This document shows, piece after piece, positions 2,716-16,249 of a stretch of DNA of 64,000 bases. The notes below the pieces were generated by a model. That model was not told the origin of the DNA and made no database searches. It saw only the letters and a list, made by a program, of their open reading frames with translations. Every line of letters starts with the position of its first letter. Within the stretch, counting starts at the first letter, position 1. Origin of the DNA: Escherichia virus TH57; sequence record MT446422.1; one strand, written 5' to 3'. The position numbers and the translations under genes were made by a program.

Positions 2716-3084
2716 ATGATGGAAACTGGTAAATTTTATACATTAGACCCTGCTGCCAAAAAACAATTCATCGCTGGTAGCCCTGATGACAATTCGCGCA
2801 TGGTCAAGCTGATGGAACAGCATGGCAGTTCCTTCAAAGTCCTGGATATGTGCTTTATTGATGGCGATTATTTTGTTGAAAAAGTTGAAATGAAAGATGG
2901 TACCATCTTGGATAGTATGGATGATGCTGATGAGTACTTTGAACTCGCTGAATGGGAATTCCGCCACTTCCTGGAAGTTGATGAAGATGCTCCTGTTGTT
3001 GACACGCAAACCATTCATGTGCAGGTTAATCACAAAAATGCTGCTGAAGTCATTGCCTTGATTAAAGCTACCTTTGGAATTTAA
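2716..3084 (+). CDS. hypothetical early protein (paralog family with 3404..3766 and 17128..17670)
   Basis: 122-aa ORF with SD GAGGAAA; shares N-terminal GKFY...AKKQFIAG and C-terminal DDYFEL...EEEF motifs with 3404..3766. Confidence 0.5.
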   Translation: MMETGKFYTLDPAAKKQFIAGSPDDNSRMVKLMEQHGSSFKVLDMCFIDGDYFVEKVEMKDGTILDSMDDADEYFELAEWEFRHFLEVDEDAPVVDTQTIHVQVNHKNAAEVIALIKATFGI

Positions 3085-3085
3085 T

Positions 3086-3340
3086 ATGACTAAAGATGAT
3101 TTCCTGGATGCAGTAGAAAAAGCCAGCGAACAGTTTGAAGTGATGGGTGTACGTGTCCATAAAGACCGAAATTACGGACTTGATGTTCAAACGTATTCTC
3201 TATGGCTTGTAGGCGAGCATAGTCTTGTAACCACTTTAGTTATGGGTGTAGATACTTATCCTTTGTTAGTCAAGTTCAGAAGTCTGGAAAAAGCTACTAA
3301 AGAAATGACCAAACTTGGTAAATGGCTCGACAAAATTTAA
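3086..3340 (+). CDS. hypothetical early protein
   Basis: Track ORF 3074..3340 begins at TTG; first ATG at 3086 (MTKDDF). Confidence 0.4.
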   Translation: MTKDDFLDAVEKASEQFEVMGVRVHKDRNYGLDVQTYSLWLVGEHSLVTTLVMGVDTYPLLVKFRSLEKATKEMTKLGKWLDKI

Positions 3341-3403
3341 AAAGTTGTTTGCACTATCTTTAAACATGATATTATACCTATCAAAACAAATGAGGAAATT
3401 AAA

Positions 3404-3766
3404 ATGGAAATCGGCAAAAAATATGAGTTCAATCCAAATCGTATTAAATCTTTCATTGATAATAGTTCATCGAATGCTAGTATGGTTGACATCATCCAAG
3501 AAAATGGTGGTTGGTTTGAAGTTAAATCAATATCAAGGGCAGACGGTCTTGATTATGTAACCGAAATCATTTGCGCTAACGGTGCAATCTATAATGATGA
3601 TGGTATGGGTGATGATTATTTTGAACTTAGTGAAGAAGAGTTTTATTGCTTCCGAGAATACTCCAGTTATACAAAAACACCTTCAGGAGCGGTTTCTATT
3701 AATTGTGTTGTAGATGCTAATAACGTCGACCAAATCATTGAACTTCTGCAAAAAGCTTTCAAATAA
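3404..3766 (+). CDS. hypothetical early protein (paralog of 2716..3084)
   Basis: 120-aa ORF, SD GAGGAAA; shares motifs with 2716..3084. Confidence 0.5.
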   Translation: MEIGKKYEFNPNRIKSFIDNSSSNASMVDIIQENGGWFEVKSISRADGLDYVTEIICANGAIYNDDGMGDDYFELSEEEFYCFREYSSYTKTPSGAVSINCVVDANNVDQIIELLQKAFK

Positions 3767-10742: not shown

Positions 10743-11153
10743 ATGAAACAAATCGCTGACGAATACAGTTTTATAAAATACGCGGAGTTGGAGTTAGTCG
10801 ATGGTAAAATCCCTATCCTTACTCTCGCAAACAAGAAAAATGTTATCTATGCTATTTCAGTTGATGATGAACTAGTGTATATTGGTAAGACGAACAACCT
10901 TAAGAAGCGTATCAACTATTACCGGACTGCAATTAACCGAATCGAACAGACGAGTGATTCAAACAAATCCCGGATGATACATGAAGCTTTACAAGAAGGC
11001 AAAAAGGTGGTATTCTATGCACGACAATGTTTCAATCTGTCAATGACCAATGAGCTTGGCACGATGTCAGTCGAAACTATGTCTCTGGAAGAGCCGATGT
11101 TCATCAAGCTTTTTAATCCCCCGTGGAATTACCAACATAAGGTGAAGAAATGA
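10743..11153 (+). CDS. denA: endonuclease II (GIY-YIG family)
   Basis: 136 aa from ATG at 10743 (MKQIADEY); GIY-YIG-like VIYAISVDDELVYIGKTNNLKKRINYY; FYARQCFNLSMTNELGT and KLFNPPWN match T4 DenA; position after nrdB as in T4. Confidence 0.8.
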   Translation: MKQIADEYSFIKYAELELVDGKIPILTLANKKNVIYAISVDDELVYIGKTNNLKKRINYYRTAINRIEQTSDSNKSRMIHEALQEGKKVVFYARQCFNLSMTNELGTMSVETMSLEEPMFIKLFNPPWNYQHKVKK

Positions 11154-12286
11154 TTGAATTATATGACAACTTAATGAAGCTGTGCGCCGAATCTGAAAAA
11201 GGTAAGTTTTTCTATACTGATTTCGTTTCTCCATTTGAAACTAAGTTCCGCATCTTTAGCTATAACTATGCTTCCTATAGTGATTGGCTACTGGATGATG
11301 CACTTGAATGTCGCGGCATTATGTTTGAAATGGATGACAATGGCCCAGTTCGCATTGCGGCCCGTCCTATGGAAAAATTCTTTAATCTGGGTGAGAACCC
11401 AATGACCATGGACCTTAACCTTGATGAAGTTGTCCTGGTTACTGCAAAAGCTGATGGTAGTTTGGTTTCCACTTATATGGACCAGACCAATATCGCCTTT
11501 AAATCCAAAGGGTCAATCAAAAGCTCACAAGCTGCAGAAGCTCTGCAGGTGTTTAAACAACCTCATCGTGAAGCGTTCAGGGCGCGTGTGACTGAAATCA
11601 CTGAAGCTGGATATACTTGCAATATGGAATATGTTGCACCAACCAATCGCATTGTTCTTCCTTATCAGGAACGTGACCTGATTTTGCTGAACGTTCGTCA
11701 TAATGAAACTGGTGAATATATTCCTTATCCTGAATTGTTCAAAGATGCTGCGCTCCGTCCTTTCCTGGTTGAAGCATATGACCCGGCGAGCATTGAGAAT
11801 GTTCGTGGTATGAAAGAGATTGAAGGCTTCGTCTATGAGCTGGCGAGTGGTCAGAAGTTCAAGATGAAAACAGAATGGTATTGTGCTCTACATCATACCA
11901 AAGACTCCATTAATAATAATGAGCGACTGTTTGAGGTTGTTGTTGCTGGCGGGGCTGATGATGTTATTGCCATGTTTACTGGCGATGATTACGCTCGTGA
12001 AAAAGTTAATGCCTTTACCATTGTACATCTGGATTATCTGTCCAACACTCTTGGACTGTTGCTTGATGCACAAAAACAGTTAGCAGGAAAAGACCGTCGC
12101 GAGTTTGCGATTAAAGGTCAAGAGTTGTGTAAACCATACCCGGGATTGTTCTCCGTATTAATGAACACCTATCAACGCCCACAGGAAACTGAACAAACGA
12201 TTGCTCAAATCAATAAAGTTTTCCTTAAAAATCATAAACTTTACATTCCGTTGGACTACCAGGCGGAAGTAATCCTTCCTGAATAA
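11150..12286 (+). CDS. rnlA: RNA ligase 1
   Basis: 378 aa; FRIFSYNYASYSDWLLDDALECRGIMFEMDDNGPVRIAARPMEKFFNL and lysine nucleotidyl-transferase motif TAKADGSLVSTY match T4 Rnl1 (gene 63). Confidence 0.9.
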   Translation: MIELYDNLMKLCAESEKGKFFYTDFVSPFETKFRIFSYNYASYSDWLLDDALECRGIMFEMDDNGPVRIAARPMEKFFNLGENPMTMDLNLDEVVLVTAKADGSLVSTYMDQTNIAFKSKGSIKSSQAAEALQVFKQPHREAFRARVTEITEAGYTCNMEYVAPTNRIVLPYQERDLILLNVRHNETGEYIPYPELFKDAALRPFLVEAYDPASIENVRGMKEIEGFVYELASGQKFKMKTEWYCALHHTKDSINNNERLFEVVVAGGADDVIAMFTGDDYAREKVNAFTIVHLDYLSNTLGLLLDAQKQLAGKDRREFAIKGQELCKPYPGLFSVLMNTYQRPQETEQTIAQINKVFLKNHKLYIPLDYQAEVILPE

Positions 12287-12296
12287 TAAAAAGGGG

Positions 12297-12325
12297 TGTA
12301 CAAGCCCCTCCTTTCTATACATAAT
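12297..12325 (+). promoter_or_regulatory. T4-type early promoter
   Basis: TGTACA, 17 nt, CATAAT; the first ATG of the downstream track ORF lies inside the -10, so the CDS start was moved to 12357. Confidence 0.5.
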
Positions 12326-12356
12326 GGTTCCATCAACTACTGATGAGGACCAAAAC

Positions 12357-12590
12357 ATGTTAAACTTAATTACAAATGACAGAGTTACACAGGCATATGG
12401 TGACAGAAATGATGGAATCTATGTCTACAAGGGAGACCGCCGGATTGGTTTCATTACTGACCTGAAGGCCAAATTGTTAAAAGAATTGAAAGCCCAAACA
12501 AGTGATTCTGGGTTTAGAGCAAGAGCCAAAAAGAAAGATGAGCGCCTGGGTGCCAACTCTTTTGGTCCTAGAGGTTACAACCGCTACTAA
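12357..12590 (+). CDS. hypothetical protein, stand-alone paralog of the N-terminal domain of the following alc-like gene
   Basis: 77 aa from Met 12 (SD GAGGA); YGDRNDGIYVYKGDRRIGFITDLKAKL parallels YGDRHDGIYVYKGTKKIGLMTDLRKKL in 12604..13107. Confidence 0.4.
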   Translation: MLNLITNDRVTQAYGDRNDGIYVYKGDRRIGFITDLKAKLLKELKAQTSDSGFRARAKKKDERLGANSFGPRGYNRY

Positions 12591-12603
12591 TGAGGAAAAT
12601 ATT

Positions 12604-13107
12604 ATGGATATGCAACTGATTTCAAACGAAATGATTGTCAATGAATATGGTGACCGCCATGACGGAATTTATGTCTATAAAGGGACCAAGAAAATTGGTC
12701 TCATGACTGACCTGCGGAAAAAACTCGCCTCCAATAAAAAGTTGAAGGCGAAACAAAAAGAATATCGTGATAAAAAATCAGAAGAGCGGAAAGAAGCACT
12801 GCATGAATCTGTTCCTGAAATGGTTGACTTCTTAAAGAACCATTTGGTTAAATATGATGCAGAAGTGTTCATTAACCAGACCCAACCTAATGTACATATC
12901 AATGGATGTGTTTGTTATGTTGTGGTTGAACCCCTGACACTTCAACACCGCCTGGGGATTAAACACCCAGTGTTAACCCAGGATGATATGGCGGATGAAG
13001 TTGGTAATCAGTTCCGCATTTCAGCGTCTGACAGTACAAATCACATCCTCCTGAATGGTTTATCCCAGGATGATATTGTTGAGGTAATCATCAAGTTATG
13101 CAAATAA
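12604..13107 (+). CDS. alc: putative Alc (host-transcription inhibitor) homolog
   Basis: 167 aa, same length as T4 Alc by memory, and sits between rnlA and pseT as in T4; assignment by synteny and size only. Confidence 0.4.
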   Translation: MDMQLISNEMIVNEYGDRHDGIYVYKGTKKIGLMTDLRKKLASNKKLKAKQKEYRDKKSEERKEALHESVPEMVDFLKNHLVKYDAEVFINQTQPNVHINGCVCYVVVEPLTLQHRLGIKHPVLTQDDMADEVGNQFRISASDSTNHILLNGLSQDDIVEVIIKLCK

Positions 13108-13451
13108 GTAATCTCACCGCAGGGCTTATGCTAGCCCTGGTAGTAACTGCTGGTAGTGGTTTCTATCTAAAAGCAAAAGTAGATAATCTCAAGACAGCGG
13201 TGGCGGAAGTCACCAAAGTTGCAGAAGATAATGCGAAAAATCTGCAATCAGTAAAAGACCAGATTAATCAAATTAATCTCCTTGACCAGGAGCGTCAGGA
13301 ATATGTTGAACTTCTGCAGAAGGAAAATGATAAACTCCGTGCGGATGCAAAACGTACTAAGGTTGTGGCAGCGAAGCCTAAATTAGTTGAAAAACAGATT
13401 AATCAGTCCTTTGATAAGTTTGCCCAGGACTTCCAGGAGCTCACCAAATGA
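13098..13451 (+). CDS. i-spanin (Rz-like inner-membrane spanin, pseT.3-like)
   Basis: 117 aa; N-terminal transmembrane helix LTAGLMLALVVTAGSGFYL followed by a charged coiled-coil domain; start overlaps upstream stop. Confidence 0.6.
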   Translation: MQISNLTAGLMLALVVTAGSGFYLKAKVDNLKTAVAEVTKVAEDNAKNLQSVKDQINQINLLDQERQEYVELLQKENDKLRADAKRTKVVAAKPKLVEKQINQSFDKFAQDFQELTK

Positions 13452-13738
13452 TGAAATCTATCATGGCAGTATGTTTGGCTATTGGGCTCGTTTCATGTGC
13501 CCAGAAGCCCGTTGTGGAGCCCACAATCCAAGTTCATCCTAATTGGCCTGTTGCATTGGCTGATTACAAGCAGCAATGGGAAGTGAGGGTAATTGATGGC
13601 CAGGCCTGGGTTGGTATGCCTTTTGAAGCATCGCAAGAATTTAGAATCTGGCTGAACGATGTAAAAAGGTATGTACATGACCAAAAAGGTATGTTATGTT
13701 ATTATCGTTCTGAACTAAAAGAGGAGCGTTGCAAATGA
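13448..13738 (+). CDS. o-spanin (Rz1-like outer-membrane lipoprotein, pseT.2-like)
   Basis: 96 aa; signal peptide with lipobox LVSC; ATGATGA overlap with the i-spanin gene. Confidence 0.6.
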   Translation: MMKSIMAVCLAIGLVSCAQKPVVEPTIQVHPNWPVALADYKQQWEVRVIDGQAWVGMPFEASQEFRIWLNDVKRYVHDQKGMLCYYRSELKEERCK

Positions 13739-13843
13739 TTGAGGCGTGTACTGACGGATGGGATATCTTTCGATTTGGTGCTGCATGTTTTTGTTTTGGA
13801 ATCGTGTTTAGCATGTGCATGCATGGTATTTTTGGAAAGTAGT

Positions 13844-13871
13844 GTACAAACTCATGGGAGCAGAGTATAAT
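13844..13871 (+). promoter_or_regulatory. T4-type early promoter
   Basis: TGTACA, 16 nt, TATAAT. Confidence 0.5.
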
Positions 13872-13905
13872 GCTCCTACGGATTATAAAATTTGAGGAAA
13901 TGACT

Positions 13906-14384
13906 ATGACTTTACGTGATAACAGTTTTGTGGCTAAGCCTGAATACATTTCAAGTATTAAATCTCCTGTATTACAAAAGCTCTTAAAATTAGGGTCCTG
14001 CGCAAGTACACCGATTGAAAAGAAAGCCACTTTCAATTATACTTGGACTAATATAAATGGCATTGATGTAATAAAACAGGTAACTTTTTATGCTCCGGGT
14101 GCTATTGAGCCTTCGCAGATTATTAATCTTGAGGAATACCAATATGTTCCACTTCAATATTGGTATCGTATGATGCTCCCTGTGTGGGAATACCCTGAAT
14201 TCATTGAAGAGTACAATGAAAAAGAACGTATTCGCGAGCTAGTAAAAAGTTTTGAATATGCAGCTAAACGCCATGGTCAAATGCAAGCTGCCGCTACACT
14301 TGGTGATGTTTCTGAAAGCGCAGCTTATGAAACTGGTAAAATCCTTAAAACTTGTCGCGAAGAACTTTATAAGGAGCTTGGTGT

Positions 14385-14388
<4 letters not shown>
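13906..14388 (+). CDS. hypothetical protein
   Basis: Track ORF 13870..14388; first ATG lies in the promoter -10; start placed at Met 13 after SD GAGGAAA. Confidence 0.45.

Positions 14389-16249
<1,861 letters not shown>

Follow-up and report, generated by a model that had tools for sequence, protein, structure and literature searches.

A short paralog of the N-terminal arm of Alc, maintained by selection, next to alc in Gaprivervirus phages

Introduction

Alc acts on elongating RNA polymerase (RNAP) on cytosine-containing DNA (dC-DNA), and not on modified DNA, by a mechanism that is unknown, and its action is blocked by paf mutations in rpoB (PMC2988021, PMC2939025). In the window analysed here, a stretch of 64,000 nucleotides (nt) from Escherichia virus TH57 (MT446422.1), the open reading frame (ORF) of 167 amino acids (aa) at the position of alc is preceded by an ORF of 77 aa, the product of which resembles the beginning of Alc. 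This locus raises the question of whether such a piece of Alc is a gene in its own right, how it arose, and what its product may do. The window belongs to the genus Gaprivervirus: its DNA shares 99.3% identity with Escherichia virus TH54, and 93-98% with some 30 further members of the SP18/VR7/VR20/VR26 group.

The gene pair itself is not new: it is already part of public annotation, and the short gene has its own PHROG. The GenBank record of SP18 (2010) names the two genes alcb and alca and describes alcb as 'similar to N-terminal region of bacteriophage JS98 Alc', while VR7 lists the short gene as VR7ORF243c (ADR32618.1; SP18 alcb is ADO19581.1), both proteins belonging to the PHROG 17715 family. 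These are the same gene as that of the window, 95-96% identical, in the same position and with no structural difference. Public records give the short gene only a similarity note or the label 'hypothetical protein', and a literature search, which was partly noisy, found no Alc domain mapping, no Alc structure, and no discussion of alcb or VR7ORF243c. Four points described below appear to be new, namely the evidence for selection, the deep orthologs with their shared tail motif, the model of a duplication, and the arrangement of promoter and hairpin.

A partial paralog of Alc upstream of alc

The 167-aa product is Alc, as an earlier note on this DNA had proposed. The Pfam profile PF17527 ('Phage ALC protein') matches its residues 1-166 over profile positions 1-176 of 177 (E=6.5e-49, 166.4 bits), and the gene is a full-length member of the family of T4 Alc (alc/unf; PF17527, PHROG 1253) in the T4 position, between rnlA (gp63) and pseT.3. 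The same profile, whose curated cut-off is 25 bits, also matches the 77-aa product (E=1.8e-10, 41.1 bits), only at profile positions 3-62 of 177. The N-terminal segment that the two products had been said to share lies far above chance, with 31/64 identities by BLASTP (48%; E=4e-17 for this single comparison). The similarity extends to the DNA, where 12337-12501 aligns with 12584-12756 with a local score of 89, compared to 22 +/- 3 for shuffled sequences. Because this alignment starts 20 nt 5' of each ATG, both Shine-Dalgarno (SD) regions (CTACTGATGAGGA and CTACTAATGAGGA) fall within the repeat. Both ORFs were found on the + strand exactly where the earlier note had placed them (Table 1).

All six invariant columns of the N-terminal arm of the Alc family (I, G, D, G, I, and G) are retained in the short protein, whereas the conserved C-terminal alpha/beta domain (F89, N91, Q94-V97, Y105, P110, G118-I119, and H147, among others) is absent. 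Compared to T4 Alc, the short protein is missing two thirds of the sequence, namely the larger part of the long helix and the entire alpha/beta domain, which includes the FINxTQPNVH core, and holds a basic tail that is not found in T4 Alc. This tail, residues 46-77, does not align with Alc and, since the protein ends at residue 77, the short product is a partial paralog and not a functional equivalent of Alc. The description of the short ORF as a stand-alone copy of the N-terminal domain is thus correct in that it encodes a truncated paralog of the N-terminal part of Alc, and incomplete in that it overlooks the distinct basic tail.

A recent copy made within the genome was considered and rejected, as the arm of the short protein is 53% identical to its own Alc versus 60% to the T4-type Alc. 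Neither protein has a match in NCBIfam, and Rfam returned no match within 11000-14500.

Selection on the short gene and its tail

The gene pair was extracted from the window and from 13 other Gaprivervirus genomes (n=14), and the ratios of non-synonymous to synonymous substitution (dN/dS) were calculated by the Nei-Gojobori method. The short paralog, whose presence in related phages the earlier note had left to be checked, is intact over its 77 codons in 14/14 loci, with a dN/dS of 0.105, which can be compared to 0.106 for alc, 0.096 for pseT.3, and 0.167 for pseT.2. Over the whole short ORF there are 17 synonymous and 6 non-synonymous changes (P=2e-7, binomial test against the neutral expectation). 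The part that cannot be aligned with Alc (codons 46-77) is under tighter constraint than the arm shared with Alc, with a dN/dS of 0.040 and 12 synonymous versus 2 non-synonymous changes (P=1.7e-6, same test). The changes in the tail include a two-step exchange between CGG and AGA that preserves Arg72, and an exchange between TAA and TGA at the stop codon. This pattern of substitutions indicates that the short ORF undergoes translation and that selection acts on its protein product.

These data bear directly on the possibility that the short ORF is a functionless, decaying remnant, either of a duplication or of recombination between alc alleles. Such remnants do arise at this locus, as illustrated by the identical 351-bp duplication of phage G28 described below; however, all of the genomes examined carry an undamaged short ORF, its dN/dS is 0.10 (P=2e-7), and its length is unchanged in lineages where the identity of RnlA has fallen to 54-57%, so that this explanation can be considered effectively excluded.

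An alignment of the short family served to define a C-terminal motif, R[LH]GxNSFGPxxxN[KR][FY], which is present in the short protein of the window as RLGANSFGPRGYNRY. Across three lineages (the genus and the two uncultured lineages described in the next section), the residues R63, G65, N67, S68, F69, G70, P71, and N75 of this motif are invariant, and the GF pair at positions 52-53 is also conserved. In the arm, the conserved positions of the short family in the same lineages are N3, L4, I5, Y14, G15, D19, I21, Y22, K25, G26, R29, G31, F32, D35, L36, and K42. One protein of 75 aa from a single contig of the European Nucleotide Archive (ENA; P0002) is identical to the short protein of the window through residue 55 and then continues in another frame (...GFRALFWSPGLQPLLMRKILWICN); this frame change implies a deletion in the tail in one assembly, and it is the sole disrupted copy seen.

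Distribution and age

Among GenBank phages, and with the exception of the G28 fragment, the short gene beside a full alc occurs only in about 34 Gaprivervirus records. Outside the genus, a 78-aa protein (P0030) is encoded between rnlA and alc on the metagenomic contig L016, whose Alc is 77% identical to that of the window, and a 77-aa ortholog occupies the same position in L017 and L018, which represent one further lineage whose Alc shares 75% identity in BLASTP. The orthologs of both uncultured lineages, which derive from Logan SRR24146912 and SRR9703290 and from ENA ERZ27239205, keep the length, the position, and the C-terminal motif. Compared to the window, the short protein of these lineages is 47-51% identical, RnlA 54-57%, PseT 56%, and Alc 76-77%; consequently, the short protein evolves at the usual pace of its neighbourhood, and Alc is unusually conserved. 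In the next Alc lineage out (63% identity; L019-L021), rnlA is followed directly by alc, without the short gene. The simplest reading of this distribution would be a single old duplication at the base of the clade, kept ever since. As judged from the available sequences, the pair is confined to one genus and two uncultured lineages, and the short gene is always next to a full alc and never found alone.

A profile of 62 positions built from the N-terminal arm gave 18 matches in 1.84 billion representative proteins, all of them Alc-sized or fragments, and in none of these matches was the arm fused to other domains. A protein of 61 aa (P0033) was examined as a further stand-alone arm and rejected, being the 5' half of an alc gene split by a frameshift (61 + 111 aa) on one contig. 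On the Logan contig L022 (SRR10769897; positions 2894-3431), which derives from a T4-like phage that is distant and uncultured, alc is interrupted inside the long helix by a frameshift of one base, leaving ORFs for a 61-aa arm and a 111-aa C-terminal domain; this split, seen on a single contig, may be a sequencing error, a pseudogene, or genuine.

Probable origin by tandem duplication

The distance from the start of the short gene to the start of alc is nearly constant, with 247, 247, and 244 nt in the three lineages. The final ~30 nt before the alc ATG encode the last seven residues and the stop codon of the short ORF and, in the window, align with the ~30 nt before the ATG of the short ORF itself (GGTTCCATCAACTACTGATGAGGA versus GGTTACAACCGCTACTAATGAGGA; p=0.001). 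Support for this alignment of untranslated region to tail is p=0.05 in L017 and not significant in L016. On account of this alignment and of the constant spacing between both starts, the duplicated unit can be delimited approximately from the -10 box of the alc promoter to codon 70. Thus, we infer that an ancient tandem duplication of ~247 nt seems to have copied the 5' untranslated region (5'UTR) of alc and roughly its first 70 codons. The short ORF would terminate at the point where reading enters the 5'UTR of the second copy.

A parallel case is found in Tequatrovirus vB_EcoM-G28 (L006, NC_054916.1), which holds a perfect tandem duplication of 351 bp (1933-2283 and 2284-2634) spanning the 3' end of rnlA, the intergenic alc promoter, and the first 48 codons of alc. 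This repeat yields an ORF for a 63-aa N-terminal fragment of Alc (YP_010069786.1) and another for a 41-aa tail of rnlA. As in the window, an N-terminal piece of Alc is thereby placed between rnlA and a full alc through a tandem duplication across the rnlA-alc junction. Unlike in the window, the two copies are 100% identical, and the tail of the fragment is an out-of-frame reading of the 3' end of rnlA; the gene of the window, on the contrary, is old, diverged (48% identical to its own Alc), and selected, with a conserved tail. Judging from the sequence of this one record, the G28 duplication is either recent or an assembly artefact, and independent of the event in the window.

The first ~180 nt of alc (12604-12783, codons 1-60) fall into two allele classes within the genus (L001-L014), which read MDMQ...NEYGDRH...GTKKIGLM and MNMQ...DVYGDRH...GSKNVGFL. 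Both classes are 81-85% identical in DNA, compared to 95-100% for the flanking short ORF and the 3' part of alc, and the region exhibits a pS of 0.34 and a dN/dS of 0.11. This split looks like an imported or long-maintained allele and not like positive selection. Gene conversion from the short paralog was rejected as the source of the allele classes, since the short ORF is equidistant from both (DNA identities of 0.72-0.73 and 0.69).

Promoter-like site, predicted hairpin, and ribosome-binding sites

The window, L016, and L017 (9/12 matches each), as well as G28 (11/12), all have a promoter-like site with a 17-nt spacer in the corresponding position. Although a lone site of this type is weak evidence for a promoter, the upstream region of the window (GGTGTACAAGCCCCTC...CATAAT) aligns with the near-consensus early promoter before the alc gene of G28 (GCTGTTTACAAGTCCCTC...TATAAT), where the site reads GTTTACA...TATAAT. 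The earlier note had assigned the short ORF its own early promoter and SD. The SD and a promoter-like site are indeed present; however, the latter corresponds to the ancestral alc promoter and would serve both genes. No promoter-like site was found directly before the full-length alc in the lineages with the short gene that were examined (window, L016, and L017). In these three lineages, alc starts 10-13 nt past the stop codon of the short ORF (13 nt in the window), and this stop codon lies on or beside the SD of alc (TAAtGAGGA, TGAGGA). Given this missing site and the short gap, the short ORF and alc of the window look like one operon and not like two genes with independent promoters.

The initiation region of the short ORF is predicted to fold into a hairpin in which the SD and AUG pair with sequence upstream of the proximal predicted transcription start. 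In the window, this hairpin has a minimum free energy of -13.2 kcal/mol (z=-3.4), and 0/200 shuffled sequences were equally stable. Equivalent hairpins are predicted at the short ORF of L016 (1012-1049; z=-7.2) and L017 (2719-2758; z=-7.0), and the same design precedes alc itself in G28 (L006 2089-2139; z=-4.7). The initiation region of alc in the lineages with the short gene is, in contrast, unstructured, with z-values from +0.3 (window) to +0.9.

A transcript starting ~7 nt past the -10 box, near 12332 in the window, would be devoid of the 5' arm of the hairpin and would hence be translatable, while in read-through transcripts from rnlA the start of the short ORF would be hidden in the hairpin. 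The short protein would then be made only from transcripts of the proximal promoter, together with Alc. According to this model, the short gene inherited the ancestral control region of alc, while alc itself moved to second place in the operon and has a start that is open at all times. In this way, the hairpins between the -10 box and the start codon suggest a promoter-specific translation.

In T4 genes such as e, soc, and I-TevI, long transcripts bury the ribosome-binding site in a hairpin, and transcripts that start from a promoter inside this hairpin set it free. Similarly, in three lineages the short ORF has its SD and AUG paired with the -10 box and the discriminator region of its own promoter, and alc of the T4-type phage shows the same pairing. 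However, the T4 cases involve late or middle promoters, whereas the site of the window looks like an early sigma-70 promoter. The promoter-coupled hairpin is therefore to be understood as a resemblance to the T4 type, recognised from sequence and predicted folding, and to our knowledge such an embedded hairpin has not been described for alc.

The same arrangement could be read as a role in cis, in which ribosomes that translate the short ORF are thereby brought to the start codon of alc, 13 nt further downstream, and the peptide would be unimportant. The stop codon on or beside the alc SD, the gap of 10-13 nt in all three lineages, and the missing promoter-like site before alc fit this idea. 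Nevertheless, the constraint acts at the amino acid level (17 synonymous versus 6 non-synonymous changes, including the two-step Arg-to-Arg change), length and motifs are kept at 47-51% identity, and alc has a good SD in an unstructured initiation region, where coupling should be unneeded. A structured initiation region of alc that would require upstream translation was looked for and rejected (z=-0.13, and z=+0.3 to +0.9). An exclusively cis-acting short ORF is consequently very improbable.

Predicted structure and charge

In the AlphaFold2 (AF2) model of Alc, built on 21 Alc sequences and with a predicted local distance difference test (pLDDT) score of 92, a helix (residues 8-15) and a beta-hairpin (23-33) are followed by a very long helix (34-80) and an alpha/beta domain (87-166). 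The model of the short protein holds a helix at residues 7-14, a hairpin at 22-25/28-32, and the start of the second helix from residue 33, with a pLDDT of ~90 at residues 11-45, 46-51 from residue 51 on, and below 50 at residues 67-77. Thus, the models predict a helix-hairpin-helix arm common to Alc and the short protein, and the last third of the short-protein tail is probably disordered.

The sharing of the arm and of the start of the very long helix, a possible oligomerisation element, opens the option that the short protein binds Alc itself, forming a hetero-oligomer in which it would be either a stoichiometric partner or an antagonist of the dominant-negative type. Adjacent, co-transcribed genes with the short ORF stop codon on the alc SD would suit a coupled and nearly stoichiometric synthesis, and the short gene never occurs without an adjoining full alc. 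However, the long helix of Alc is rich in lysine and glutamate and resembles a single stable helix more than a hydrophobic coiled coil, the helix of the short protein is confident only to about residue 48, a report of Alc oligomerisation was not found in the literature, and the linkage between short-ORF haplotypes and the N-terminal allele classes of Alc is not strict. A hetero-oligomer of this kind is accordingly deemed unlikely.

Both proteins also differ in charge, the short protein being very basic (pI 10.05, net charge +7.5), and Alc approximately neutral with an acidic C-terminal domain. This basic character, together with a tail that is the most constrained part of the protein (dN/dS 0.04) and ends in a motif absent from Alc, and with an evolutionary pace like that of its neighbours (47-51% identity, versus 76-77% for the unusually conserved Alc), would fit a new role unrelated to Alc, such as nucleic-acid binding by the tail, a decoy, or an anti-defence function, with the arm merely serving as a scaffold. 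Against it, all invariant arm residues have been kept while rnlA has diverged down to 54-57% identity, suggesting that the original contact of the arm is still in use, and the linkage to alc is strict. A new role of this type is a possibility, albeit a doubtful one.

Sequence and profile searches of solved structures gave nothing significant for Alc, the Alc family, or the short family. The C-terminal domain of Alc may have a weakly similar fold to the 'double-wing' DNA-binding C-terminal domain of T4 MotA (PDB 5jlt) and, if so, may be the DNA-reading part of the protein, although the scores are low and the sequences are 10-13% identical, with an acidic domain on the side of Alc. This comparison concerns only the C-terminal domain of Alc, which is absent from the short paralog.

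A proposed docking role for the arm

The reading preferred here, with a rough probability of 0.4, is that the arm is a docking element, most likely for RNAP, and that the short protein occupies the docking site without bringing a C-terminal domain, thereby modulating the Alc-dependent shut-off. As every invariant arm residue is kept and the alpha/beta domain is absent, the short protein would be expected on the same partner as the arm of Alc. This proposal is derived from the conservation of the arm in both proteins, the strict linkage to alc, the co-transcription, and the possible, weak MotA-like fold of the missing domain. The contact of Alc is placed on the beta subunit of RNAP by the paf mutations R368H/C and P345S/P372L (PMC2939025). 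Once docked, the short protein would tune the shut-off either as a competitor of Alc or as its companion, in the latter case with the basic tail placed on nucleic acid; the tail could also contact a second surface. The role of competitor or regulator that the earlier note had suggested is a reasonable hypothesis.

Several points weigh against this docking role. The link of the short protein to RNAP or to Alc is itself an inference, and a published mapping of the Alc region that contacts RNAP was not found in the literature. The arm is never fused to other domains (18 matches in 1.84 billion representatives) and, therefore, there is no independent sign of a portable docking module. The short-ORF haplotypes and the N-terminal allele classes of Alc recombine freely within the genus (L013), so no sign of allele-specific co-adaptation can be recognised. 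Finally, the conservation of the tail could indicate a function unrelated to Alc.

Genomic context

The locus follows the T4 order 63-alc-pseT.3-pseT.2-...-pseT, plus one additional small gene. On the + strand, the genes are arranged as rnlA, the 77-aa ORF, the 167-aa ORF, pseT.3/pseT.2, and pseT (Table 1), and the synteny of alc, with rnlA before it and pseT.3/pseT.2 after it, upstream of pseT, is the same in SP18, VR7, and G28. The start of pseT.3, which encodes an i-spanin-like protein, overlaps the end of alc by 10 nt (13098-13107), and pseT.2 overlaps pseT.3 by 4 nt; because of these overlaps, the run from the short ORF to the spanin genes is tightly packed and probably co-translated.

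The short ORF and its surroundings have been labelled in different ways. In phage 212 (PQ765507.1), the product names are shifted by one gene, with rnlA appearing as 'endonuclease' and the short ORF as 'RNA ligase', and in EAWsc9 (PQ341120.1) the short ORF is labelled 'PRC domain-containing protein'. Two records (L007 and L008) place the start of alc further upstream, at a GTG within the short ORF, resulting in 189 aa, and vB_EcoM_RZ (MW598459) begins the short ORF at the ATG at 12324, inside the -10 box, resulting in 88 aa.

Table 1. Features of the rnlA-pseT region, with positions in the window and the evidence for each
Feature	Position	Strand	Evidence or remark
rnlA (gp63, RNA ligase 1), upstream neighbour fixing the synteny	11150-12286	+	Pfam T4_Rnl1_C E=2.6e-41, RNA_lig_T4_1 E=8.5e-24; PHROG 562
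Terminator-like hairpin after rnlA (AGGGGTGTACAAGCCCCT, then CCTTTCT), overlapping the -35 hexamer	12292-12309	+	Conserved across the genus
Promoter-like site TGTACA-17-CATAAT, sigma-70-like, 9/12 matches	12297-12325	+	Orthologous to the T4-type alc early promoter
Putative RNA hairpin, -10 box and discriminator paired with SD and AUG of the short ORF	12319-12360	+	Predicted folding
Putative duplication copy 1, alc 5'UTR from about the -10 box and recognisable 5' coding part	12320-12501	+	
SD GAGGA of the short ORF, 7 nt 5' of the ATG	12345-12349	+	Sequence
Short Alc paralog 'alcB', 77 aa	12357-12590	+	PHROG 17715 E=7e-53 over 1-77/77; Pfam ALC E=1.8e-10
Alc-type N-terminal arm, codons 1-45	12357-12491	+	AF2 pLDDT ~90 over residues 11-45; invariant columns kept
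Basic tail, codons 46-77, ending in RLGANSFGPRGYNRY	12492-12587	+	dN/dS 0.040; motif kept in the L016, L017, and L018 orthologs
Putative duplication copy 2, its 5'UTR part now serving as the final ~7 codons plus stop codon of the short ORF and bearing the alc SD	12567-12756	+	
SD GAGGA of alc, 1 nt past the short ORF stop (TAA 12588-12590)	12592-12596	+	Sequence; unstructured
alc, 167 aa, host transcription inhibitor/terminator	12604-13107	+	Pfam ALC E=6.5e-49; PHROG 1253 E=1.6e-73
pseT.3/pseT.2 spanin pair, downstream neighbours fixing the synteny	13098-13738	+	PHROG 739 E=2.2e-36; PHROG 812 E=6.7e-40
pseT	14702-15610	+	

DNA modification and significance for Alc

According to two comparative studies, Gapriverviruses keep alc, denB, denA, and dCTPase and have no recognisable dCMP hydroxymethylase (PMC8056088, PMC12115623), and the DNA of VR7 is reported to carry modified, non-glycosylated cytosines (PMC6326788). 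In the SP18 sequence analysed (L015, GQ981382.1, 10000-45000), neither gene 42 nor beta-gt stands in its usual place between uvsX and imm, and the annotation has no alpha-gt near gp47-gp55, while the gp56 dCTPase is retained; this gene content agrees with the published statements that Gapriverviruses lack a known synthase of hydroxymethylcytosine (hmC). Another a/b gene pair of the SP18 genome consists of the tandem paralogs soca/socb.

It is conceivable, although a long shot, that Alc and its short paralog form a two-component Alc system that evolved with the changed DNA chemistry. The short protein would then retune Alc at RNAP, or hold it back, so that the differently modified DNA of the phage escapes termination.

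The question of how Alc makes the E. coli RNAP terminate on cytosine-containing DNA while sparing modified phage DNA has stood since 1993. Concrete, testable elements of the locus are the conserved motif of the tail and the predicted promoter-embedded hairpin, and an N-terminal arm of Alc that has been naturally separated, and is under selection, would be a ready dissection tool to learn which half of Alc docks and which reads the DNA. The pair is thus a useful lead rather than a surprise, and may offer a natural handle on the mechanism of Alc.

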